Part shown: piece after piece, positions 1 to 13,560 of the stretch
Layout of the letters: the number at the start of each line of letters is the position of its first letter
Numbering within the stretch: position 1 is the first letter of the stretch
Assembly (NCBI GenBank): GCA_964550965.1
Contig: CAZKCB010000002.1
Location: forward strand, 1 to 25,176
Direction: 5' to 3'
DNA length: 25,176 nucleotides
Origin: an uncultured Oscillospiraceae bacterium
GTDB lineage: Bacteria; Bacillota; Clostridia; Peptostreptococcales; Anaerovoracaceae
Translations under genes and position numbers: made by a program
Notes under the pieces: generated by a model
What the model was told of the DNA's origin: nothing
Databases searched by the model: none
What the model saw: the letters and a program-made list of their open reading frames with translations, nothing else

Positions 1-80
1 GGCGGCGAGCGCCACTTACGGGTCGGATCTCTTCTAGTCCGGTTCAGGGGCGTCGGCAACGCAGAACGTTATGCGAAATT
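1..80 (+). repeat. attC-like site 0 (right half only, cut by window edge)
   Basis: GTCCGGTTC at 37-45 (also at 1284 and 2326), then CGTCGGCAACGCAGAAC and core GTTATGCGAAATT at 68-80, directly upstream of an ORF. Confidence 0.75.
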
Positions 81-102
81 CTTTATGAAAGGTTGAGACA
101 CA

Positions 103-939
103 TTGAACCAATACTGTATTAAAACCTCTGAAAAACAGGTAGTTGCATGCTCGCAAATGCGCATTTCGTTTGAACCTAAAGGGACTCAGATGGATTTCAG
201 AAACGAAATGAGAAAAGCCATCTCAGAATTAAGACTTGGAAATAATGAGATAGCAATTGCATCCTTCTGCACAACCGAAAATGCATTCTTCGATGTTGAA
301 AATATTCTGGTGTATAACATAGGGCCAAATACATTTGCCACAATTAGCAAGAATGGGATTCATGTTGTGAAAAGCAATGAAACAATAGATGCTGGTTTTA
401 GCAATAAGTATGAGTACCTTATTGCTGACAAGAAAAAGACACTTTCAGAACTGGAAATAAAAAAGAGCAACGCATTTTTGCAGTTCCAATTTACCTTGAA
501 GAAGTTCAACACTGCATTGAAACCGAGTGATTATTGGCTGGCTTTCCATGATGGTAACACAGAAATTGAAAACCATGAAACAAAAAAGTTTTTTGGGGTT
601 TTCATAGATGTGCATCTGCCAAATGAATGTGGAAATATAGTGAGCATGATGAAGCCGATGATTGATGGGATCATTTCCGGGATGCATTCAGAAAATCTGA
701 AAGACGGAGATGCTGAGATCAGACTGTCTAAAATCCTTAATGTACCAAATGAAAGAATTACGGAGTTATTGTACAGGAAAGATTTTTCAATTTTAGGTGA
801 GCGGAATTTGATAAGTGCCTATAGAGATGGCCTGAAATGGAACCCAGAAGACGAGAGATGCATTGAAATTACAATAATTCCTCATGAAAATAAATCAATT
901 GAAAGAGCAGAAGTAAAAGGTTACGTTTATTGGCTGTAA
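103..939 (+). CDS. Hypothetical protein, cassette-borne (278 aa; start uncertain, TTG 103 or ATG 157)
   Basis: Long AT-rich ORF bounded by GTTATGCGAAATT (68-80) and AACTTCGCATAAC (952-964). No family confidently recognised. Confidence 0.8.
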   Translation: MNQYCIKTSEKQVVACSQMRISFEPKGTQMDFRNEMRKAISELRLGNNEIAIASFCTTENAFFDVENILVYNIGPNTFATISKNGIHVVKSNETIDAGFSNKYEYLIADKKKTLSELEIKKSNAFLQFQFTLKKFNTALKPSDYWLAFHDGNTEIENHETKKFFGVFIDVHLPNECGNIVSMMKPMIDGIISGMHSENLKDGDAEIRLSKILNVPNERITELLYRKDFSILGERNLISAYRDGLKWNPEDERCIEITIIPHENKSIERAEVKGYVYWL

Positions 940-951
940 GTCACGGCTAAG

Positions 952-1028
952 AACTTCGCATAACAATGCATCTGCCGCAAGGGTTTCGGGCATCTCTGGG
1001 GCGGACTACGACGGTCCACACCCCTTCG
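952..1028 (+). repeat. attC-like site 1 (left part, truncated)
   Basis: Inverse core AACTTCGCATAAC 12 nt after the stop. Left arm TAACAATGCATCTGCCG can pair with the site-0-type right arm CGGCAACGCAGAACGTTA. Internal GGAC/GTCC hairpin followed by CACACCCC as in sites 2 and 3. GC-rich sequence stops abruptly near 1028. Confidence 0.7.
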
Positions 1029-1151
1029 TCAAGGAAAGATCTAGGTCAAATAGTTGAATATGGTATTTTTCAAAAAAACAAAGTAGGAAAAAAGTATGTA
1101 TATTCATTGAAAGAAATTGTTTCTGTGATATCAAGTTTGAATAAGAATTAA
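1029..1151 (+). pseudogene. 3' remnant of a gene ending in a winged-helix-like C-terminus
   Basis: Reads SRKDLGQIVEYGIFQKNKVGKKYVYSLKEIVSVISSLNKN-stop, AT-rich, followed immediately by an inverse core. The RKDL..LV..G...K.K.G..YVY pattern resembles wHTH tails such as those on Fic-family proteins (inference). Confidence 0.5.
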
Positions 1152-1154
1152 CGG

Positions 1155-1316
1155 CATATAACAAAGCACTCACGCTGACGGCTCGTTCAGCAAAGTTTGT
1201 GCTTGGGCTGCCGATTTCTAACAGCGTTGGGCAGCCACACGCCCTCACCGGGTGCAAGCACCGCTCTGAGGCAAGTCTTTCGGGTCCGGTTCGGGTGGCG
1301 TCGGCAATGCGAATTT
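1155..1316 (+). repeat. attC-like site 2 (GTTA core apparently deleted)
   Basis: CATATAAC then AAAGCACTCACGCTGACGGC, identical to sites 3 and 6. GGCTGCC/GGCAGCC hairpin at 1206-1236, GTCCGGTTC at 1284. Ends GGCAATGCGAATT versus GGCAACGCAGAACGTTATGCGAAATT in site 0. Confidence 0.8.
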
Positions 1317-1339
1317 GTTCATGAAAAGGGGGCATTCAA

Positions 1340-2182
1340 ATGAAAAAAGACCAATACTTGCAAACCCCAGTCGTTACAGAATTTATAGAATGGCTTATTA
1401 AACACATTGATGAAGACCTATTCACACATACCTATATTCAGAAACGGCCTAAAGGCAATGTTTGGAGATGCAATTCTATTTACAATGCCTTTGAAAACTA
1501 CAAATGGAGATTCAATTGTACCCTCCCAAATGGAAAGACTATTTCAGGAGATACATACAGAGAGTGTGAAGAAATACTGACAAACATTTCGTCAGGTTTA
1601 ATAAATGCTTTAGAACAAGGGAATCAATCACTGCTCAAGGCATATTGCATATCCACTTTACAATGGGGCGGAGTACTAAGGAGCAATAAAGAGAAAATTG
1701 AAAACATGGAAAATGCATTAGAGTACTTTTCTTCAACAACGTGTGCGCTGGATCCATACACGGTTTCATTGTCTGATACGTTTGAAGGAATTTTAATGAA
1801 TTCAGGATTCACAAAGATTTACTCTTTGATGATTAAAGATTTTATTATTTATGACGGACGTCTAGGAGCTGCTCTCGGGCTGCTTGTAAGAAAGTATCTT
1901 GAAGAAAACAATATTAATACAGTTCCAAGTGAACTGAAATTTGCATACGGTAATCCAAAGACCAATAGTTATGATAAGGATGAACTTTCAAAGCGGAATC
2001 CCAGCAAAGATGGCTACAAGTTCCCTTTGTTAACCAATAATAGTAAGCTCCATGTTGTAAATAATTTGAGAGCTAATTGGATTGTTTTTGAAGCAGCAAA
2101 ACAAAGTAAATTTTCAACACATAATAGTCCAATGAGAGCATTAGAATCTGCATTATTTATGATCGGTTATGATATCAGGTAG
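1340..2182 (+). CDS. Conserved-looking hypothetical protein, possibly HhH/DNA-glycosylase-like fold, cassette-borne
   Basis: 280 aa, RBS AAAGGGGG. Motifs WGGV, NSGFTKIYSL, IYDGRLGAALG, LESALFMIGY. Fold assignment is from pattern recall only. Confidence 0.8.
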   Translation: MKKDQYLQTPVVTEFIEWLIKHIDEDLFTHTYIQKRPKGNVWRCNSIYNAFENYKWRFNCTLPNGKTISGDTYRECEEILTNISSGLINALEQGNQSLLKAYCISTLQWGGVLRSNKEKIENMENALEYFSSTTCALDPYTVSLSDTFEGILMNSGFTKIYSLMIKDFIIYDGRLGAALGLLVRKYLEENNINTVPSELKFAYGNPKTNSYDKDELSKRNPSKDGYKFPLLTNNSKLHVVNNLRANWIVFEAAKQSKFSTHNSPMRALESALFMIGYDIR

Positions 2183-2189
2183 TACCAAC

Positions 2190-2369
2190 GACTTCGCCTA
2201 ACAAAGCACTCACGCTGACGGCCCGTTCCACAGAGTTCGTGCCTGGGCTGCCAGTTTTCTGACACGGTTGGGCAGCCACACCCCATCACCGGGTGCAACC
2301 ACATTCAAGATGCTCTGGCTATGGGGTCCGGTTCAGTGACGTTGTGAACACAGCGGCGTTATATGAAAT
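2190..2369 (+). repeat. attC-like site 3 (complete, about 165 bp core to core)
   Basis: GACTTCGCCTAAC (2190-2202), TCAC box, internal hairpins, GTCCGGTTC (2326), GTGA box, GTTATATGAAAT (2358-2369). The first 24 nt from TAAC are identical to sites 2 and 6. Confidence 0.85.
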
Positions 2370-2437
2370 CATACGCAAAGACTGCGCGCCGCTCTGGCGC
2401 GGAAGCCATGTTAGTTATGTAAGATTGAGGTGAGACA

Positions 2438-3043
2438 ATGAATGCAAAAGAGGAACAATCAAGAAAAGCATATAACAAAATAGCGGAGAACTATAATGAC
2501 TCATTTGATGGGCGGTTCACACGCTTATTCAAAGATGAGCTGGTTTCAAGAGTGATTCTTAAGCAGAATGATGCAGTACTGGATGTTGCCTGCGGAACAG
2601 GTGAACTGTTAGACCGCCTTTATCATAAATGTCCTATTAAAGGAGTTGGGGTAGATATATCAGATAAAATGATAAAGGTAGCAAAATTGCAGTACAGTAA
2701 ATTTGATTTTATTGTATCAAGCTGTGCACCGCTTCCCTTTGATGATAACTCATTCGATGTATTAACAGTATCCGCAGCTTTTCATCACTTTCCGGAGCCT
2801 GGAGAGTTTGCAAAAGAAGCACACCGTGTTCTAAAGTATGGAGGGAAAATATACATAGCAGAAGTGAATTACCCTACACCAATACGTCAAATCGTTAATT
2901 CTATCATTTTACCGTTATATAATGCGGGTGATGTTAAGATATACCACGCAAAGGAGCTAGTTGAAATATTTAAAAAGGCTAATTTTAACCTTCTATCAGT
3001 TGCCCAAAAGGGAAAAGTGCAGCTACTGAACGCCACCAAATGA
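2438..3043 (+). CDS. Class I SAM-dependent methyltransferase (UbiE-like / Methyltransf_11)
   Basis: Motif I VLDVACGTG, GVDISDKM, LPFDDNSFD, AFHHF..P..F..E..RVLK.GG. RBS GAGGTG. Confidence 0.9.
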   Translation: MNAKEEQSRKAYNKIAENYNDSFDGRFTRLFKDELVSRVILKQNDAVLDVACGTGELLDRLYHKCPIKGVGVDISDKMIKVAKLQYSKFDFIVSSCAPLPFDDNSFDVLTVSAAFHHFPEPGEFAKEAHRVLKYGGKIYIAEVNYPTPIRQIVNSIILPLYNAGDVKIYHAKELVEIFKKANFNLLSVAQKGKVQLLNATK

Positions 3044-3169
3044 GTAAAAACAAATAATAGTTATTCATTTTGCTGTTCGAATGGACCATATCTTTCCCCT
3101 AGATTTACAGTGCCGCAGTCCATGGCCGCCACGTAGTGTGGCGGAAGAAACAAGGAGGGTAGAAGAACC

Positions 3170-3778
3170 ATGAAGAAAAATATTTTGATAAGTACGCTTT
3201 TTATGATAATTATAGTGATTGCTTTTTCTTCGTGTACGAATAAAGAAAATGAGTCAAACGATAGTAACATATATGAATACATTCCTTATGGGCAATTGCC
3301 TGAAGACTATAATGTAGAAGACGCAAAATCGGATGGATGTGTCGTATTTGAGGATCTTCAGCTTACTTCCGGAGATGAAGCTTGGAAACAATTCTTAGAA
3401 ACCGCACAAGCTGGCAAAGCGGCAAGTGTTCGTCTTGCGAACTATTATACGTTAGACGCTCAGAATATATCAGAAGAGTATTATGCGGAAGTAAAAGACG
3501 AATATCCCGTTTTATATGTACAGGATTTAAGCTTTGACGGCGAGAACTATCGCTTATATTATACCGAGGGCGAAAAAGAATATGAATACAAATACCCATA
3601 TTTAGTAAAATTCACAGGCCCTCCCAACAGTAGTACCGCAACATACAGCCAATATGAAAGATATTTTTTGGTAAGGGATAAGTCAGTTACTTTTGAGCAA
3701 ATTCAAATAGGTTGGTTAAGCAGTTACACGGGAAATCAAGTGGATTGTGTTGCGGTCTATACGGATTTAAAAAAATAA
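3170..3778 (+). CDS. Hypothetical lipoprotein
   Basis: MKK + hydrophobic stretch + lipobox-like FSSC. Strong RBS AAGGAGGG. Confidence 0.8.
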   Translation: MKKNILISTLFMIIIVIAFSSCTNKENESNDSNIYEYIPYGQLPEDYNVEDAKSDGCVVFEDLQLTSGDEAWKQFLETAQAGKAASVRLANYYTLDAQNISEEYYAEVKDEYPVLYVQDLSFDGENYRLYYTEGEKEYEYKYPYLVKFTGPPNSSTATYSQYERYFLVRDKSVTFEQIQIGWLSSYTGNQVDCVAVYTDLKK

Positions 3779-3840
3779 GAGGGTTGCATTTAAAGCTATG
3801 GCGCCACGTCCTGTGGCGCTTAGTAAAAAGGAGATAGATC

Positions 3841-3985
3841 CATCTTATAACAAAGCACTCTGACGGCACGTTCAACAAGGTTCGTGCCGGAGCTGCTGAT
3901 TTTTCTCTTGCTCAAAAGCAGCCAAAGTACTTGTGAAGACGGCTGCATATATGCCTTGCTTCGAAATGGTGAGTAGTGTTATTAA
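3841..3985 (+). repeat. attC-like site 4 (divergent)
   Basis: CATCTTATAAC AAAGCACTC-TGACGGC (4-nt deletion versus sites 2/3). Hairpins GGCACG/CGTGCC (3865-3888) and GCTGCT/AGCAGC (3892-3922). Candidate right end GTGAGTAGTGTTATT (3969-3983). Confidence 0.65.
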
Positions 3986-4025
3986 GCAAAATGCGCCATA
4001 AATTGTGGCGAATAGGGGATTAAAA

Positions 4026-4109
4026 ATGTATGGTGCAGCAGGTGGCGGTTCTTGCTCCCGCAATATACTGGGGTGTGATGGGGATTCAGCATTTGACACA
4101 AAAATCTAA
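4026..4109 (+). CDS. Possible 27-aa small ORF or gene remnant (MYGAAGGGSCSRNILGCDGDSAFDTKI)
   Basis: ATG preceded by AGGGGA, immediately after site 4 and a leader hairpin. No family recognised. Confidence 0.25.
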   Translation: MYGAAGGGSCSRNILGCDGDSAFDTKI

Positions 4110-4130
4110 AGGTGATTCTGGAGGAATTTT

Positions 4131-4895
4131 ATGAAAATAATTACAATTGATAGAAACAACATTGATCAAGAGCATATTTGCTGCGCCATTGGAAATGACA
4201 AACCAAATCAAAACAGAGCTCAAACAAAAAAGGATTGGATGAAAAATGAATTTGATAATGGGCTTGTATTTAAACGATTTGACCAGAGAGGCAAGTTGTT
4301 TATTGAATATACTCCCATTGAAAATATCTGGAAACCAATAAAAGGGAAAAACTATATGGCCATTAATTGCTTGTGGGTTTCGGGGCAATTTAAGGGAAAG
4401 GGATTATCGACGCAATTACTTGATCGTTGCATTGAAGATGCAAAGTTAAAGGAAAAAGACGGAATCGTTGTCGTCAGTAGCGATAAAGTCAAACCATTTT
4501 TGACAGATAAAAAATTCTATTTGAAACATGGATTTGAAATTGCAGATACTGCCCCACCGTATTTTGAATTGCTGGTTTTGAAATTCAATGAGAAAGCTGA
4601 GAATCCAACATTTTCAGACAATGCCAAAAGTGGGACATGCATAAATAAGAATGGATTTACCTTTATCTACTCAAATCAATGCCCTTTCATGGAGGAATAT
4701 GTAGCGATCTTATCTGAGGTCACCAAAAGAAATGAAATAGCATTTGAGACGATCAAGCTGCAGAATTTCAAAGAAGCGCAAGAAATGGGAAGTCCATTTG
4801 GGACACTTGGAATTTATTTCAATGGTGAATTTCAAACCCATGAATTGATGTCGGAAAAGAAATTCGAGAAATATATTGAAAGATACAGAAAATAG
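4131..4895 (+). CDS. yoaP: GNAT N-acetyltransferase with YoaP domain
   Basis: N-terminal EHICCA, INCLWVSGQFKGKG (acetyl-CoA loop), QCPF, C-terminal F.THE. RBS GGAGG. Confidence 0.85.
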   Translation: MKIITIDRNNIDQEHICCAIGNDKPNQNRAQTKKDWMKNEFDNGLVFKRFDQRGKLFIEYTPIENIWKPIKGKNYMAINCLWVSGQFKGKGLSTQLLDRCIEDAKLKEKDGIVVVSSDKVKPFLTDKKFYLKHGFEIADTAPPYFELLVLKFNEKAENPTFSDNAKSGTCINKNGFTFIYSNQCPFMEEYVAILSEVTKRNEIAFETIKLQNFKEAQEMGSPFGTLGIYFNGEFQTHELMSEKKFEKYIERYRK

Positions 4896-4913
4896 AGAGT
4901 AGTAACTATTCAA

Positions 4914-4952
4914 CAGCGCATAACAGTGGCTCTGCCCCTGTGGATCTGCGGT
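4914..4952 (+). repeat. attC-like site 5 (short left-arm stub)
   Basis: CAGCGCATAAC 18 nt after the yoaP stop, followed by AGTGGCTCTGCCCC. Interrupted by site 6. Confidence 0.45.
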
Positions 4953-5000
4953 AATTCGCCTAACAAAGCACTCACGCTGACGGCTCGTTCATCAAGGTTT
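4953..5000 (+). repeat. attC-like site 6 (left part, truncated; right end of array)
   Basis: AATTCGCCTAAC. 31 nt from TAAC (4961-4991) are identical to site 2. Continues TCAAGGTT, like site 4. Confidence 0.75.
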
Positions 5001-5975
5001 TGGACGAATGACAAATATTTTTTCGTAAAACGCTCCATCCTTATAGAAGGTCGCGACACAAACATTCCTTCCGTAAACATCGCTTTCCACACAAGCAACC
5101 CTTGTGCCGGAATTGCGTCCTTGCCACATTCCATTTTCTTCTTTGACGTCAACGTACTCGATGTATTTTGAAAGCTCCTTGTACAGGTCATCTGCAATAA
5201 ACTCATCTACGTAGTAATAATTATCAAAATAACCGCCTTGTTTGAATTCACACTCGGAAGGATTTAATGACAGAAGAAACTCCTTGATCGCTTTGTCTCC
5301 AAAAGCAGTCTCAGTATCGTCTCTTTTGAGGAGAGTAGTAACGCCGTCCTCTTTTTTGTATGGCAAATCAGCTTCCGTTTTAATGCGTTCCAACAATGTA
5401 CCGTCTGTGTTTTTTATTTTCATAGACAGTGCATCGTTTGAAATTAAAGCAACATCGGCACGGAGAAACTGATGGCTACCCGTGGCGTATTCTCCTGCTG
5501 TTATACCGATTTTGTCAGATAGCTCCCAAGCCTTGTTCCACGAGAAGTCCCCCTCACTATCCTTGTAACCGAGAGCACGGAGAACAAGCGTAAGATACTG
5601 CGTTGCCGTAACCGTAGCGTCCCCGCTGAAAGTTGTTGCGCTTGTCCCGGCTGTCAGGCCGTTTGAATAGGAATAGCCGACATAAGGCTTTGCCCAATCG
5701 GGAACATCGGTAAAGGGCGTCGTCCATGTTCCGGCCTTTGCTTCCTCATCCTTGCCCAAAAGCCGCACAAGCATTGTTACAGATTCTGCGCGGGTGGGCG
5801 CACGGCCAAGGTCATAAATGGGTTTGCCGTTTGCGTCAGTGCCTGCTCCGCTAAACAAGCCCAGAGCGTTCAGCGCATCTGCCGCTTCGGTTGCTTTGCT
5901 GCTGGCTGCAAATGCAGATGGAACCATAAAAGAAACCATGATCAGTACAAAAAAAAAGGAAATTGCTCTCTTCAT
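4992..5975 (-). CDS. S-layer homology (SLH) domain surface protein
   Basis: Signal peptide ending AFA. SLH-type motifs TRAESVTMLVRLLG, PFTDVPDWAKPYVGY..NGLT.G, LRADVA. RBS AGGAGGGG. Confidence 0.85.
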   Translation of the reverse strand: MKRAISFFFVLIMVSFMVPSAFAASSKATEAADALNALGLFSGAGTDANGKPIYDLGRAPTRAESVTMLVRLLGKDEEAKAGTWTTPFTDVPDWAKPYVGYSYSNGLTAGTSATTFSGDATVTATQYLTLVLRALGYKDSEGDFSWNKAWELSDKIGITAGEYATGSHQFLRADVALISNDALSMKIKNTDGTLLERIKTEADLPYKKEDGVTTLLKRDDTETAFGDKAIKEFLLSLNPSECEFKQGGYFDNYYYVDEFIADDLYKELSKYIEYVDVKEENGMWQGRNSGTRVACVESDVYGRNVCVATFYKDGAFYEKIFVIRPKP

Positions 5976-6147
5976 TGAGTCCCCTCCTATATAGATAATA
6001 GCTCATTTAATTATTCTACTGCAAACTTTTCCAAATTTCAATTATCGCAGGTTTTATTTCTCTTTAGACTTTTTTTGATAAATGAACTTGAAGAAAAAAG
6101 CAAGTTTGCATTAAGCAAGAAAATGGATACAAATCGTATCAAAATTA

Positions 6148-8619: not shown

Positions 8620-8652
8620 GAGAAATACCTCCTTTGACCGCTCTAAATGTAT

Positions 8653-8680
8653 ATTATACACCGAATTTGCATAACGACAA
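8653..8680 (-). promoter_or_regulatory. Candidate sigma-A promoter for the araC gene
   Basis: Minus strand TTGTCG-N16-TATAAT, 33 nt upstream of the GTG. Confidence 0.5.
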
Positions 8681-8712
8681 CAAGACAATTAGAAAAATTA
8701 GCAAGTCAGTTC

Positions 8713-8741
8713 TTGTCTTCTACTCCCTCAAATTATATGAT
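8713..8741 (+). promoter_or_regulatory. Candidate sigma-A promoter for the GRE operon
   Basis: TTGTCT (8713-8718)-N17-TATGAT (8736-8741), 40 nt before the ATG at 8782. Confidence 0.55.
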
Positions 8742-8781
8742 AAACGGAATCAAGCGGTTGAAAAACCAGAAGGAGGACCAA

Positions 8782-11154
8782 ATGCTAACATCGAGAGTTC
8801 AGAAAATGCGGGAAAAGCTTTTCAACACGATTCCAACAATCACAGCAGAGAGACTGGTCCTGGCAACGGAAGCCTATCAGAAATTTGCCGGTGATGCGGT
8901 TCCTATTTTCAGAGCCAAGGTGGTCAACTACATCATGGAGAACATGACAACACTGATCATGGATGATGAACTGATCGTAGGAACAGCAACAAATGCATAT
9001 CGTGGTTCCAATCTGCATCCCGAATTTCAGTCAAGTTCATGGTATCTCAGTGATATTGACGAATTTTCAAGCAGAAGCAAGGACCCCTGCAATATTTCCC
9101 CGGAAGACAAAGCGACGATCGTAGAAACGCTCAAGTACTGGGAAGGGAAGTCCATGGAAGACCTGGCAGAGATCATAATGCCGGCATCCATTCGCGAACT
9201 CCAAAAAGACGACGTTATTTGCGTAGGCCTTCAGAATGGTGTCTCAGGGGAAACGACCTGCGATCACGAAAAGATCCTGACGGTAGGAATCAGAGGGTAC
9301 ATCGAAGAGTGCCAAAGAAACATCGAGAACACCCTTCCTCAGACCATGGAGGATCAAGCTAAGGTGGATTTTTGGAAGGCTTGCATCATCCAGAGCGAAG
9401 GCCTGATCACATACGCGCATAGAATGGCAGACGAAGCCGAAAGAATGGCAAAAGAATGCACAGACACGAAAAGAAAGCAGGAGCTTCTTACGATTGCAGA
9501 AAACTGCAGGATCATTCCGGAAAACCCACCGCAGAGTTTTCAGCAGGCGCTTCAGACCGTCTGGTTCGTGCATGTCTATTTCTACATTGAAGTTTGCACT
9601 ACTGCATGCGGATTCGGCAGATTTGACCAGTACATGTGGCCATTCTACAAAAAGGACGTGATCGACGAGAAGAACATCACAAGAGAAGAAGCCTTGGAAA
9701 TGCTGGAATGCTGTTATCTCAAGGCTTGTGAAGTATATGAAGTAAGAGACAACTGGTATGCAACCGCATTCGCAGGTTATCCCATGTGGCAGATCCTTGT
9801 TGTGGGCGGACAGACGAGAGACGGTAAAGATGCATCAAATGACTTATCGTTCCTCTGTCTGGAAGCAGCAGATGAGCTCCGAACAACACAGCCTGTCATG
9901 GCACTGCGGGTCTTTCCCGAAACGCCGCACGAACTGATCGAGTTCGGCTGCAAGATGATTCAGGAAGGTCAGGCAAACCCGGGATTTTTTAACGATGAAA
10001 CCGCAATCAAGATGGCTCTTGGCAAGGGAGGCACTTTAGAAGAAGCACGAGACTGGACCATCGTTGGCTGTATTCAGGCAGGACCTGGGGGCGGCGGAAC
10101 AGATGGTTCCCCTGATGCCGGATACGTTAACATGGGCAAGATGATCGAGTTCGTTCTGCATAACGGCCTTGACCCTGTTACAGGAAAGCTCATGGGGCTC
10201 GAAACCGGAGACCCCAGAGAATTCAAGAACATCGAAGAATTCAAGGATGCGCTCAAAAAGCAGATCATCCATCATTACGATCTCATCAGGATCGGCTACA
10301 ACCTGATGCAGAGCAACCACATGAATCGTTACCCTGTCATCTTCGCATCGATGGTAACCAGAGGCTGCGTGGAAAGCGGCAGATCCGTACAGAACGGTGG
10401 AGCACAGTACTCGACAGCTGGCATGTACGTTACAGGGGCAGCGAACCTTGCAGACTCCATCGCAGCAGTAGAAAAGTGTGTATTCGAGGATCAGGACCTG
10501 ACAATGGATGAACTGATCAAGGCCTGCGACACAAACTTCGAAGGACAGGAAAGAGTACGCCAGCTTCTGCTGAATAAACCCGGAAAATACGGGAACAACC
10601 AGGACCACGTTGATAGCATCTACAAGGAAATGATGCACCATATTGCGAATATGGTTCAGGGCTGGAATGACGCCAGAGGCGGACATTACAGTTTTGGAAT
10701 CGACTCACAGACGATGAATATTCCACATGGTGCCGTTACAGGCGCACTCCCGGATGGAAGGCTTGCAGGCGAATCATTTTGCGATGCTGCTTCTCCAATG
10801 ATGGGCAGAGACATCAACGGCCCGACTGCTACCGTTAAGTCGGTTGGCGGCATTGGACAGGAAGTATTACAGGAAGGTGCACTGTTCAACCTGCGCTTTG
10901 ATCCGAAGGGGGTTCAGGGAGAAAGCGGGCGGAATATTATCGGAGGCGTGATCAAGACATTCTTCGAAGATGGCGGCGAACATATACAGATCAATGTTGT
11001 AGACAATGAAACCCTCAAAAAGGCACAGGAAAAACCTGAGAACTACAAGGGGCTCATGGTTCGTGTAGCAGGATACATGGCATACTTCACAGAACTGGAT
11101 AAGAGCGCCCAGGATGTAATTATCAACAGAACTGCGCACTTATCGCAGAATTAG
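8782..11154 (+). CDS. Glycyl radical enzyme (PFL2/dehydratase-like superfamily), substrate unknown (790 aa)
   Basis: ATG 8782 with AGGAGG. Glycyl loop RVAGY (11062-11076), thiyl loop GCIQ (10066-10077), GRFDQY and AFAGYPMWQ.L.VGG; adjacent activase. Confidence 0.92.
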   Translation: MLTSRVQKMREKLFNTIPTITAERLVLATEAYQKFAGDAVPIFRAKVVNYIMENMTTLIMDDELIVGTATNAYRGSNLHPEFQSSSWYLSDIDEFSSRSKDPCNISPEDKATIVETLKYWEGKSMEDLAEIIMPASIRELQKDDVICVGLQNGVSGETTCDHEKILTVGIRGYIEECQRNIENTLPQTMEDQAKVDFWKACIIQSEGLITYAHRMADEAERMAKECTDTKRKQELLTIAENCRIIPENPPQSFQQALQTVWFVHVYFYIEVCTTACGFGRFDQYMWPFYKKDVIDEKNITREEALEMLECCYLKACEVYEVRDNWYATAFAGYPMWQILVVGGQTRDGKDASNDLSFLCLEAADELRTTQPVMALRVFPETPHELIEFGCKMIQEGQANPGFFNDETAIKMALGKGGTLEEARDWTIVGCIQAGPGGGGTDGSPDAGYVNMGKMIEFVLHNGLDPVTGKLMGLETGDPREFKNIEEFKDALKKQIIHHYDLIRIGYNLMQSNHMNRYPVIFASMVTRGCVESGRSVQNGGAQYSTAGMYVTGAANLADSIAAVEKCVFEDQDLTMDELIKACDTNFEGQERVRQLLLNKPGKYGNNQDHVDSIYKEMMHHIANMVQGWNDARGGHYSFGIDSQTMNIPHGAVTGALPDGRLAGESFCDAASPMMGRDINGPTATVKSVGGIGQEVLQEGALFNLRFDPKGVQGESGRNIIGGVIKTFFEDGGEHIQINVVDNETLKKAQEKPENYKGLMVRVAGYMAYFTELDKSAQDVIINRTAHLSQN

Positions 11155-11174: not shown

Positions 11175-12110
11175 ATGAGTAATATGCCTGAAAGCGTTCT
11201 TGTGGGAAACCTTCAGAAATTCTCTATAGAAGACGGTCCCGGCATCAGAACGACGGTATTCCTGAAGGGCTGCCCACTCAGCTGTAAGTGGTGTCACAAT
11301 CCTGAGTTGATCGACCCGAAGCAGCAGCTGATCAAGTCACCAAACAACTGCATCGGATGTGGATACTGCATCAGGATATGCCCAAAGGCTGCATTGACGC
11401 TGGACCCGGAAGCGGAAGTAGTCATTGACAGATCCAAATGCGATGTGTGCCTCAAGTGTGCAGATGAGTGCTACGCAAAAGGTTAAAGACCTGTAGCTAA
11501 GCCAATGACCATCGATGAAATACTTGACATCGCGGGGCAGGATAAAGGCTTCTATAATAACACAGGGGGCGGCATTACCGTCAGCGGAGGAGAAATCCTC
11601 ATGCACGTAGGGTTTGTCAGCAAGCTCATCGAGGAAGCGGGAAAACGAGGCATCAACGTGTGTCTGGATACCTGTGGCTTCGGAGATTCAAGGGCGCTTA
11701 TGGAAATGGCGCTAGCGGAAAACGTCACGAACATTCTTTATGATATGAAGTCAATTGACGACGAAGTTCACAGAGAGTACACGGGAGTGAGTAATCAGCT
11801 GATCCTTGACAACCTGAGAATGCTCGCAGCAGATGCAAAAACTTTGGATAAGCTGATCATGAGAATGCCTCTCATCAAGGGCGTGAATGACAGCGACGAC
11901 ATCATTAAGCACACGGGCGAGCTTTACAGAGAAATCGGAGTGAAACGACTGGATCTGCTCCCATATCACAGCCTTGGCATCAGCAAGGAAAGAAATGTGG
12001 GTGGCACACAGGAGGAACTCGAACCGCCGACCGAAGAGCGTCTGAAAGAAATAGAACTGTATTTCAGAAATGAAATGGATTTGAATGTGGGAATAATGGG
12101 TCAATTATAA
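11175..12110 (+). pseudogene. GRE-activating radical SAM enzyme with ferredoxin-like insert, split by one in-frame TAA at 11484-11486
   Basis: GPGIRTTVFLKGCPLSCKWCHNPE (CX3CX2C), two CX2CX2CX3C clusters, SGGE, DTCG, RMPLI, LLPYH. Both ORF halves share one frame. True pseudogene versus base-call error unresolved. Confidence 0.85.
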
Positions 12111-12147
12111 AAATTATTTATTGCTAGTTTAAGAGGAAGGAAACATT

Positions 12148-13560
12148 ATGGACGGGACTAATTTAGGAATCATCACCTTAATTCCGGCACTGGGCTTCTT
12201 AGTATTCGCTCTGGTGACTAAGAAGTGTATTCTGAGTATCATGTTATCTGGTATACTCGGGTACATCTTTTACTACAAAGCAGGGTTCTTCATGCCAACG
12301 ATCGACGCATTGCTCGCGGCATCGACCGATGGGGACAACAACTATATCGTAATCATTTGTTTGCTGTTCGGGTGCTTCGTACAGCTGCTCAGACAGTCAA
12401 AGGGAGCTGTGGCAATATGTGACATAGCCAGAAAGTACATTAAGACAGAAAAACAAGTACTGCTGATGACGTGGATCTGCGGAGTGATCATATTCATCGA
12501 TGACTACCTCAGCATCCTGGTTACCGCAAATTGTACACTTCCCCTTGCGGATGAACACAAGGTGCCCAGAGAAATGATGTGCTACATCATCAATACAACC
12601 TCGGCTCCGGTTTGTCTGATCATACCGATTTCCGCATGGGTCGTATTCTTCTCGGGAATCTTTGGGCAACAGAAAGAGGCAGCAGTAGTTGGTGACAGTG
12701 CAATGAGCATTTATTACCATATCATGCCATACTTCTTCTATCCGTTCCTTTGTGTATTCTTCGTGCTCTTCGTCATTCTGGGAGTCGTTCCGAAAATGGG
12801 CGGCATTAAGAAAGCCTACCAGAGAGTTGCCGAAACCGGACAGCTTTGGCCGCCGTCCAGCAACATGCAAAACCAGGGCGATGAACTGGGTGACGTAATG
12901 GGGGCCATCTCGGATTGTAATGCAAAGGAAGAAAAAGAAGTAAAACCGCATCTTTGGGCGTTCCTCGTGCCGATGGCAGTGGTGATCATCTCAACATTAT
13001 GGCTGGACGATATCCTTTATGGAGTCAGCCTGGGAATTTTCTCTTGTTTCGTTTTGTTTGTTCCCACCAGGATTATGAGTCTTGGCAAGTTCTGCGATGC
13101 CTGCTATAAGGGTCTTGAAGATATGCTATTTATCGCAGTTGTGCTTGTTACATCCTTATTCTATCGGGAATCCATCAACCTGATCGGCTTGCCTGACTAT
13201 CTGATTACTGTTGCAGGACCCTATATGAGTGCAGAATGGCTTCCTGCGATCTCCTTCCTGCTCATTGGTCTTGTATGCTTTGCAACCGGAAATATCTGGA
13301 GTATCCCTGCGGTATGTACCCCAATCATTTTACCGCTGGCTGCTGCAAGCGGTGCAAGCATTCCACTCACACTCGGAGCCATTATTTCAGCGGCCTGCTT
13401 TGGTGCACAGGCTTGCTTCTACTCGGACGTAACGCTGTTGTCGGCTTCAGCATGCAAAATCAATAACGTAGATTATGCGGTTGCACAGTTGCCATACATA
13501 GGAATTGTCACCGCAATATCATTCATCGGCTATGTGGTCTTTGGATTCGCATTGTCGTAA
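12148..13560 (+). CDS. NhaC-family (Na+/H+ antiporter-like) solute transporter
   Basis: 470 aa, many TM segments, IFIDDYLSIL motif, GN.WS, Q...YSDVT.LSA. RBS GAGGAAGG. Confidence 0.8.
   Translation: MDGTNLGIITLIPALGFLVFALVTKKCILSIMLSGILGYIFYYKAGFFMPTIDALLAASTDGDNNYIVIICLLFGCFVQLLRQSKGAVAICDIARKYIKTEKQVLLMTWICGVIIFIDDYLSILVTANCTLPLADEHKVPREMMCYIINTTSAPVCLIIPISAWVVFFSGIFGQQKEAAVVGDSAMSIYYHIMPYFFYPFLCVFFVLFVILGVVPKMGGIKKAYQRVAETGQLWPPSSNMQNQGDELGDVMGAISDCNAKEEKEVKPHLWAFLVPMAVVIISTLWLDDILYGVSLGIFSCFVLFVPTRIMSLGKFCDACYKGLEDMLFIAVVLVTSLFYRESINLIGLPDYLITVAGPYMSAEWLPAISFLLIGLVCFATGNIWSIPAVCTPIILPLAAASGASIPLTLGAIISAACFGAQACFYSDVTLLSASACKINNVDYAVAQLPYIGIVTAISFIGYVVFGFALS

Follow-up and report, generated by a model that had tools for sequence, protein, structure and literature searches.

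The matching inverted repeats at the two ends of each gene cassette are the two halves of the basal stem of that cassette's own attC-like hairpin, in an integron-like gene-capture array of a Clostridia bacterium whose linked recombinase is not a classical integron integrase. The window, which is the whole stretch of DNA analyzed here, comprises the first 25,176 nucleotides of contig CAZKCB010000002.1 from a fragmented metagenome-assembled genome (GCA_964550965.1; 380 contigs, 2.25 Mb, 45% G+C, 78% complete) of an uncultured bacterium of the family Anaerovoracaceae. In 37 non-redundant cassettes from homologous arrays, the start of a cassette matches the reverse complement of its own end far better than that of another cassette. 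The splitting of such a stem between two cassette ends by crossover at G|TT is ordinary integron logic. The longer stem, an invariant mismatch at position 11, a conserved tip, the Clostridia host and an IntI-like recombinase without the IntI-specific domain are less ordinary.

Organization of the cassette array

Bases 1–4990 of the window hold co-oriented, A+T-rich, unrelated genes on the plus strand, separated by G+C-rich repeats of about 90–165 bp. Each repeat begins with ..TAAC AAAGCACTCACGCTGACGG, and intact copies end with ..GGCGTCGTGAGTGC GGAAC GTTA... The window opens with the right part of an attC-like site (1–74) that is cut by the contig end. It belongs to the right-arm subtype GGCAACGCA-GAAC-GTTA, with the crossover GTT at 68–70, and its bases 1–55 are identical to an internal site of contig C272 of the same genome. 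The start half of the basal (R) stem of cassette 1 (GTTATGCGAAATTCTT, 68–83) carries A at position 11 (base 78), and the end half (AAGAACTTCGCATAAC, 949–964) carries C opposite this position (base 954). The two halves enclose a gene of 278 residues without a family match (103–939). A truncated attC-like site of a second subtype follows (958–1046; left arm AATGCATCTGCC), which has no right arm and precedes a gene remnant at about 1047–1151; bases 952–976 resemble 4912–4936. The next site (1156–1307) is chimeric, with a subtype 1 left arm and a subtype 2 right arm, and comparison of 37–80 with 1285–1320 shows that a 12-bp deletion has removed its GTTA crossover.

Cassette 3 therefore starts with a half-stem that lacks GTTA (TGCGAATTTGTT, 1308–1319), contains a gene of 280 residues without a family match (1340–2182), and ends with the half-stem AACGACTTCGCCTAAC (2187–2202). 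It is followed by a full-length attC-like site (2199–2361) with a degenerate right arm (TGTGAACAC instead of CGTGAGTGC). The unit at 2358–3852 contains two genes, encoding a class I methyltransferase (2438–3043) and a lipoprotein-like protein (3170–3778), and is probably a fusion of two cassettes. In the degenerate attC-like site at 3849–3981, the GTTA at 3978 lacks the usual 5-nt spacer. The last cassette gene (4131–4895) encodes a GNAT acetyltransferase with a YoaP-like C-terminus, and the ends of this cassette do not pair. The array end (4911–4990) consists of a subtype 2 left-arm remnant (4918–4957) and a truncated subtype 1 left arm (4958–4990), which abuts a convergent SLH-domain gene on the minus strand (4992–5975).

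Complementarity of the cassette ends in the window

The observation made in the first-pass annotation, that the ends of each unit are inverted repeats of each other, holds. The repeats are located as it described, with GTTATGCGAAATT at 68–80, AACTTCGCATAAC at 952–964, GTTATATGAA at 2358–2367, CATCTTATAAC at 3842–3852, GACTTCGCCTAAC at 2190–2202, and TGCGAATT from 1308 with GTTA missing. The first pair is longer than had been described, since 68–83 and 949–964 are complementary at 15 of 16 positions (94%). A blind scan for GTTA...TAAC pairs with at least 10 of 12 complementary flanking positions returned only this pair in all 25,176 bases. The three examples differ in strength. The unit 68–964 is strong. 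The unit 1308–2202 is supportive, as 9 of 11 scored positions match between 1308–1319 and 2187–2198 (positions 5–16, with position 11 excluded), including 4 of 5 at positions 12–16. The unit 2358–3852, with 8 of 10, is no better than background, since about 7.2 of the first 10 positions match between unrelated cassettes.

Cassette specificity in homologous arrays

Scans of public genomes and metagenomes for a 22-nt repeat motif gave 29 further stretches. As the L'' and L' boxes are reverse complements of each other, sites were located with spacer-aware anchors that were required to occur as L/R pairs, and each GTT at the right end of a site was paired with the AAC at the left end of the next site, which yielded the 37 non-redundant cassettes. 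The first-pass annotation had named complementarity no better within than between units as the outcome that would refute it, and this was not found. Positions 1–4 (GTTA) are invariant within and between cassettes. At positions 5–7, the match is 0.81–0.95 within cassettes and 0.38–0.69 between cassettes (z 9.2); positions 8–10 give a z of 8.1, with a conserved G at position 8. At positions 12–16, the match is 0.65–0.97 within and about 0.25–0.44 between cassettes; for positions 12–17 the z is 12.8, and none of 20,000 permutations reached the observed value. From position 17 onward the match is at background.

The end similarity could in principle reflect only a longer conserved consensus of the repeat family, or conserved terminal inverted repeats of a transposon-like unit. 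Several flanking positions are indeed semi-conserved (G at 8, A at 9–10, T at 12), the starts of cassettes 1 and 3 in the window resemble each other, and the 2358–3852 example is at background. However, positions 13–16 have near-random composition between cassettes (0.24–0.25 match) yet match within cassettes at 0.65–0.78, and most stem columns contain four pair types. This reading is refuted by the permutation test and is very improbable.

Position 11 never matches. It is A at the start in 37 of 37 cassettes and C at the end in 35 of 37, and it was not used to select the cassettes. More distant arrays, whose recombinases are 45–57% identical, were found in Alkaliphilus metalliredigens QYMF, Clostridium formicaceticum, a Chryseobacterium plasmid and three other Clostridia genomes, one of which has 11 consecutive distinct cassettes. 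In these arrays, 21 of 21 cassettes have A at the start and C at the end at position 11 (56 of 58 overall), and pairing runs to position 18–19. This second set was found with a complementarity filter, so that only its position 11 and positions 18 onward are unbiased.

As a control, six class 1 integrons from plasmids were analyzed and the ends of 13 distinct cassettes were paired, with boundaries chosen by the 7-bp core only. Within-cassette complementarity continues to position 12 (0.46–0.77 at positions 8–12, against 0.22–0.49 between cassettes) and falls to background at position 13. Several cassettes pair for exactly 12 bp, and there is no fixed mismatch. Pairing beyond the 7-bp core is therefore a property of ordinary integron cassettes too, and the features particular to the arrays studied here are the extra 4–7 bp and the position 11 mismatch.

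Position of the crossover

A rare GTTC start is matched by GAAC at the end of the same cassette; position 4 therefore already belongs to the cassette, and the crossover lies 5' of it. A homologous 992-bp cassette occurs in three arrays with unrelated neighbors on both sides, and the similarity begins exactly at GTTA. In locus L025, a metagenomic array with a related recombinase, the same 190-bp cassette lies beside the attI-like junction and again 1.7 kb downstream, a pattern that re-insertion at attI would leave.

Predicted fold of the rebuilt sites

No site in the window is fully intact. The only full-length one (folded as 2183–2378, bottom strand) is no better than shuffles (z −0.34) because its right arm is mutated; the window thus shows relics, and the case rests on homologous arrays. 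From these, 24 circular-cassette sites were rebuilt in silico. Their bottom strands fold with a mean z of −5.15 against dinucleotide-preserving shuffles and are about 10 kcal/mol more stable than the in-array hybrids of the same sites in 24 of 24 cases. The consensus fold consists of a basal stem of 16–17 bp, an asymmetric internal loop (4–5 against 2–3 nt), a 9-bp L stem and a conserved branched tip. The L stem is invariant within the family of the window but covaries between lineages (GCACTCACG/CGTGAGTGC against CCATTCCCG/CGGGAATGG). No single extrahelical base of the canonical kind is seen in the L stem of the main subtype, although individual folds show a 3-nt bulge just past it. The arms of subtype 2, for which no intact site was available, differ by one base in length.

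The overall fold energies of the top and bottom strands barely differ (−43.7 against −44.0 kcal/mol), but the mismatches do differ by strand. Position 11 is an A.C mismatch on the coding strand and a T.G wobble on the bottom strand, and the other transitions favor a bottom-strand over a top-strand wobble by 38 to 14 (p 0.0012), which points to the bottom strand, as in classical integrons. These biases also argue against the possibility that the pairing acts in RNA, between the ends of each cassette transcript or through repeats serving as terminators or processing sites. The sites do sit between co-oriented genes and are GC-rich and structured, and their tip is conserved across families, which is unusual for attC sites and could mean a second function. 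However, the transcribed strand carries the A.C mismatch in 56 of 58 cassettes, cassettes move as units bounded at GTTA, the stem halves lie 0.2–3 kb apart in the transcript, and an Rfam scan of window bases 1–6000 gave no match at E ≤ 1. An RNA role as the explanation is thus very unlikely. A double-stranded, dif-like site was also considered and rejected, as conserved rather than cassette-specific arms would be expected. The loci contain many sites of about 160 nt with cassette-specific stems, instead of the single dif site of about 28 bp with conserved arms that serves a housekeeping recombinase in chromosome dimer resolution.

The linked recombinase and attI-like junction

Two further pieces of the array lie on contigs C236 and C272 of the same genome. 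C236 carries a gene for a 360-residue tyrosine recombinase, followed about 190 bp downstream by a junction ..GTA-GTTATATG and then by cassettes in the same orientation. Close homologues of the recombinase (73% and 67% identity) are located in metagenomic contigs directly upstream of arrays of the same repeat. The same order and orientation of recombinase gene, attI and array recurs in nine loci with recombinases 45–76% identical, namely C236, L025, L027, A. metalliredigens, C. formicaceticum, the Chryseobacterium plasmid, and genomes G364, G267 and G219; these include two complete genomes and a plasmid. A conserved attI-like junction ending in GTTA, with repeats resembling the L-box motif of the local sites, lies between the recombinase gene and the first cassette in C236, L025, L027 and a further locus, L059. 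A consensus scan of this region found no convincing sigma-70-type promoter; as the genes are co-oriented, read-through from the recombinase gene is possible.

The recombinase has the catalytic residues and the SAM-like and catalytic domains. It scores above the cut-off of the NCBIfam XerA model NF040815 (246 bits, cut-off 220) but below that of the IntI model TIGR02249 (219.6 bits, cut-off 265), which it matches in two pieces that skip model positions 170–236. Its alignment to Vibrio IntI4 (PDB 2A3V) skips chain residues 172–242. Its alignment to IntI1, at 31% identity, leaves about 41 IntI1 residues unmatched, while the C-terminal SPLD motif is shared. The protein thus lacks the IntI-specific domain.

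The first roughly 70 residues have no counterpart in IntI1. This N-terminal domain matches Pfam HARP (PF07443) below the cut-off in 8 of 14 homologues (best E 3e-4) and is modeled confidently (pLDDT 82). The best structural matches of the model are the N-terminal domain of T4 UvsW (Z 7.4, rmsd 2.3, 62 aligned), the XPB damage-recognition domain (Z 5.5 and 5.3), T4 MotA (Z 4.7) and SMARCAL1 HARP (Z 3.9). These domains bind branched or distorted DNA. Z values in this range can arise by chance and a Foldseek search against the PDB returned nothing at E ≤ 0.001, so that the resemblance is a lead rather than a result.

The recombinase family occurs in 12–16 of 400 sampled Clostridia species (about 3–4%), often at contig ends, and separate Xer-like genes exist in the genome studied here. 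The array might instead be an ordinary integron served by a canonical IntI encoded elsewhere, with the neighboring recombinase a bystander such as a Xer-type or IS-associated enzyme. The sites have the canonical layout (AAC/GTT, two stems, a spacer and a variable tip), class 1 cassettes also pair beyond the core, and recombinases of the integron-like subgroup without the IntI insertion are known from IS91 and IS3 elements (bioRxiv 10.1101/542381). No match above the IntI cut-off was found in this genome, although at 78% completeness a canonical IntI elsewhere cannot be excluded for this organism, nor in G099, a same-family genome (97% complete). G099 keeps a four-site array without any such recombinase, which counts against the explanation favored here. 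The recurrent linkage, the L-box copies in the attI-like region, and the absence of IS91 or IS3 transposases beside the recombinase in the loci read all argue against a bystander. In addition, IntegronFinder surveys reported no complete integron in Firmicutes in 2016 and only Limnochorda in 2022, plus a few arrays without an integrase. This alternative is therefore considered unlikely.

Interpretation

The explanation held with high confidence is that window bases 1–4990 are the decaying far end of an integron-like cassette array, in which each cassette carries its own recombination site of about 160 nt. In the free circular cassette, this site would fold on the bottom strand into a hairpin with a basal stem of 16–19 bp, the internal loop, the 9-bp inner stem and the branched tip. 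In this view, the recombinase cuts and joins at G|TT, at the inner end of the basal stem, so that after insertion one half of the stem (TTA plus about 12–15 nt) lies at the start of the cassette and the other (about 12–15 nt plus TAAC) at its end, next to the rest of the site. This would be why the ends of a unit are complementary to each other and not to their neighbors. Pairing would be kept by selection on the folded circle that re-inserts at the attI site beside the recombinase gene. The wobble at position 11, about one helical turn from the cut, probably marks which strand and which arm is used, and the enzyme is most likely the tyrosine recombinase encoded directly upstream of such arrays. 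The analysis itself establishes the covariation of the cassette ends, the position of the crossover, the fold, the linkage of recombinase and array, and the missing domain. Activity, including excision, circle formation and insertion, is inferred from comparative evidence alone, as are recombination of single strands, strand choice, and the roles of position 11 and the N-terminal domain.

The interpretation given in the first-pass annotation is thus partly supported. Its proposal that units were integrated from circles recombining just after the G of GTT agrees with the pairing of ends that lie in different repeat copies, the crossover evidence and the rebuilt folds. Its inference of a different recombinase footprint from pairing beyond 7 bp is not supported as argued, given the class 1 control, but the conclusion turned out right on other evidence, namely the longer stem with its position 11 mismatch and the recombinase lacking the IntI-specific domain.

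A more far-reaching reading, which remains tentative and is somewhat less likely than not, is that these arrays represent a distinct and fairly widespread class of integron in Clostridia, with at least one plasmid copy in Bacteroidota. Its recombinase would be a sister of IntI that never had, or has lost, the domain held to be essential for reading folded attC sites, and would instead use a UvsW/HARP-like structure-specific DNA-binding domain at its N-terminus. It would read a longer basal stem in which the T.G wobble replaces extrahelical bases as the strand-selection mark. Integrons are the textbook system for capturing genes by recombining folded single-stranded DNA, and two statements recur in that literature: that the IntI-specific domain is needed to recognize the fold, and that complete integrons are nearly absent from Firmicutes. 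An array family with structural hallmarks of integron cassettes beside a recombinase without that domain would make both statements testable, would show another way to recognize a DNA hairpin, and would open a large pool of unexplored cassettes in anaerobes. The position 11 wobble and the 16–19 bp stem are simple, mutable features, and cultured carriers exist (A. metalliredigens QYMF and C. formicaceticum).

Comparison with known systems

No paper describing these arrays, or linking such a recombinase to cassette arrays, was found in a literature search that covered few subscription journals. The closest known systems are classical integron cassettes and attC sites recombined by IntI (class 1 IntI1; Vibrio IntI4/VchIntIA, PDB 2A3V). 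Shared with these are arrays of co-oriented, unrelated, mostly promoterless genes, each followed by an imperfect palindrome beginning ..TAAC and ending GTTA.., a crossover at G|TT such that the R'' box at the end of a cassette pairs with the R' box at its start, and a site layout of R stem, unpaired spacer, L stem and variable tip. An attI site beside the recombinase gene, toxin-antitoxin cassettes and group II introns in the arrays, and a mismatch bias pointing to the bottom strand are also shared. The arrays described here differ in a stem of 16–19 bp instead of about 12, in the A/C (T.G) at position 11, which is absent from the class 1 control, in the lack of an obvious single extrahelical base in the 9-bp L stem of the main subtype, and in a tip of roughly 110 nt that is conserved across bacterial families. 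They also differ in the domain composition of the recombinase and in their Clostridia hosts, where complete integrons are reported as almost absent.

In integrons with an inverted integrase gene, of the Treponema denticola type, the recombinase gene is likewise co-oriented with the cassettes instead of divergent, but those integrases, as far as is known, carry the IntI-specific domain. Integration of the CTX phage by XerCD (PMC3442271) provides a precedent for a Xer-type recombinase without the IntI domain that exchanges one strand pair on a hairpin folded from single-stranded DNA; however, CTX uses the host chromosome-dimer resolution system and a single dif site, without cassette arrays or a dedicated recombinase gene beside an attI site. 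Finally, the non-IntI members of the integron-like subgroup of simple tyrosine recombinases, reported from IS91 and IS3 elements by Smyshlyaev et al. (bioRxiv 10.1101/542381), are close relatives of IntI without the IntI insertion, whereas the recombinase described here is located beside cassette arrays instead of an IS91 or IS3 transposase and has an N-terminal domain of which we found no mention in that description.

Sequence features of the arrays

GC-rich hairpins of the form GCCAC-N5-GTGGC recur in the leaders and trailers of the cassettes. Within the window, they are located at positions 2385–2401, 3126–3144, 3801–3819 and 3994–4010, and they are also present on contig C236, another contig of the same genome that carries a piece of the array. 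The stem sequence of these hairpins varies, while the pairing is kept. A glycyl radical enzyme gene and its neighboring genes (window 8647–11154) lie outside the array.

The tip of the recombination site, which is roughly 110 nt in length (for example, CACACC..TCAC.GGGTGCAAGCACCGCC and GGTCC.GTTCA), is conserved between Anaerovoracaceae and Alkaliphilus, as observed for the site at window 2199–2361, the sites of L025 and L027 (two metagenomic contigs with arrays of the same repeat) and the sites at 12213–12333 and 20089–20209 of L059 (the Alkaliphilus metalliredigens array). Such conservation is unusual for attC tips and suggests a second function.

Cassette content and distribution

A cassette of about 190 bp with no obvious gene recurs in several arrays (L025, 11191–11384 and 12894–13082; L027, 11965–12160; and L044, a further array-bearing stretch, 899–1094), and is found once directly beside attI. 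Additionally, three tandem copies of a 97-nt unit are located inside one cassette of L027 (16443–16734).

A near-complete genome of the same family (G099) contains a four-site array, but neither a recombinase of this family nor a canonical IntI was found in it. The array is present twice in the assembly (contig C1, about 528,800–532,400, stretches L018/L019; and contig C2, 7,376–10,922, stretch L021), once on a small contig in the reverse orientation. Comparison of one cassette on contig C1 of G099 (positions 11205–12196 of the extract covering L018/L019) with its homologue in the array stretch L057 (7273–8264) showed that the end of the G099 cassette differs at 4 of 6 positions next to TAAC and now matches the start of the next cassette instead of its own start, whereas the outer stem positions 12–17 are unchanged. 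This difference may be the result of conversion between neighboring sites.

The exact 22-nt repeat motif also occurs in genomes labeled as other phyla, in the stretches L030, L031, L033 (MAG labeled Fermentimonas), L036 (Chitinophagaceae), L038 (Anaerolineae) and L037 (OW818645.1). These occurrences could be due either to mis-binning of short contigs or to real transfer.

Possible relationship to other mobile elements

Multiple copies of a shorter recombinase (281 aa, 45% identical), which is without the N-terminal domain, occur in a single genome, G219, on contig C1 (944393–945199, 948396–949202, 1295293–1296099 and 1298664–1299470). Two of these copies are within about 7 kb of the full-length recombinase gene, on its array side. 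The shorter proteins may be the IS-linked relatives described in the literature.

Group II intron reverse transcriptase genes are found inside the arrays of A. metalliredigens (L059, 14075–18269), Clostridium formicaceticum (L060, 12546–13892, 16228–17268 and 20240–21020) and the Chryseobacterium plasmid (L069, 15732–17048), an arrangement that recalls the group IIC introns that target attC sites.
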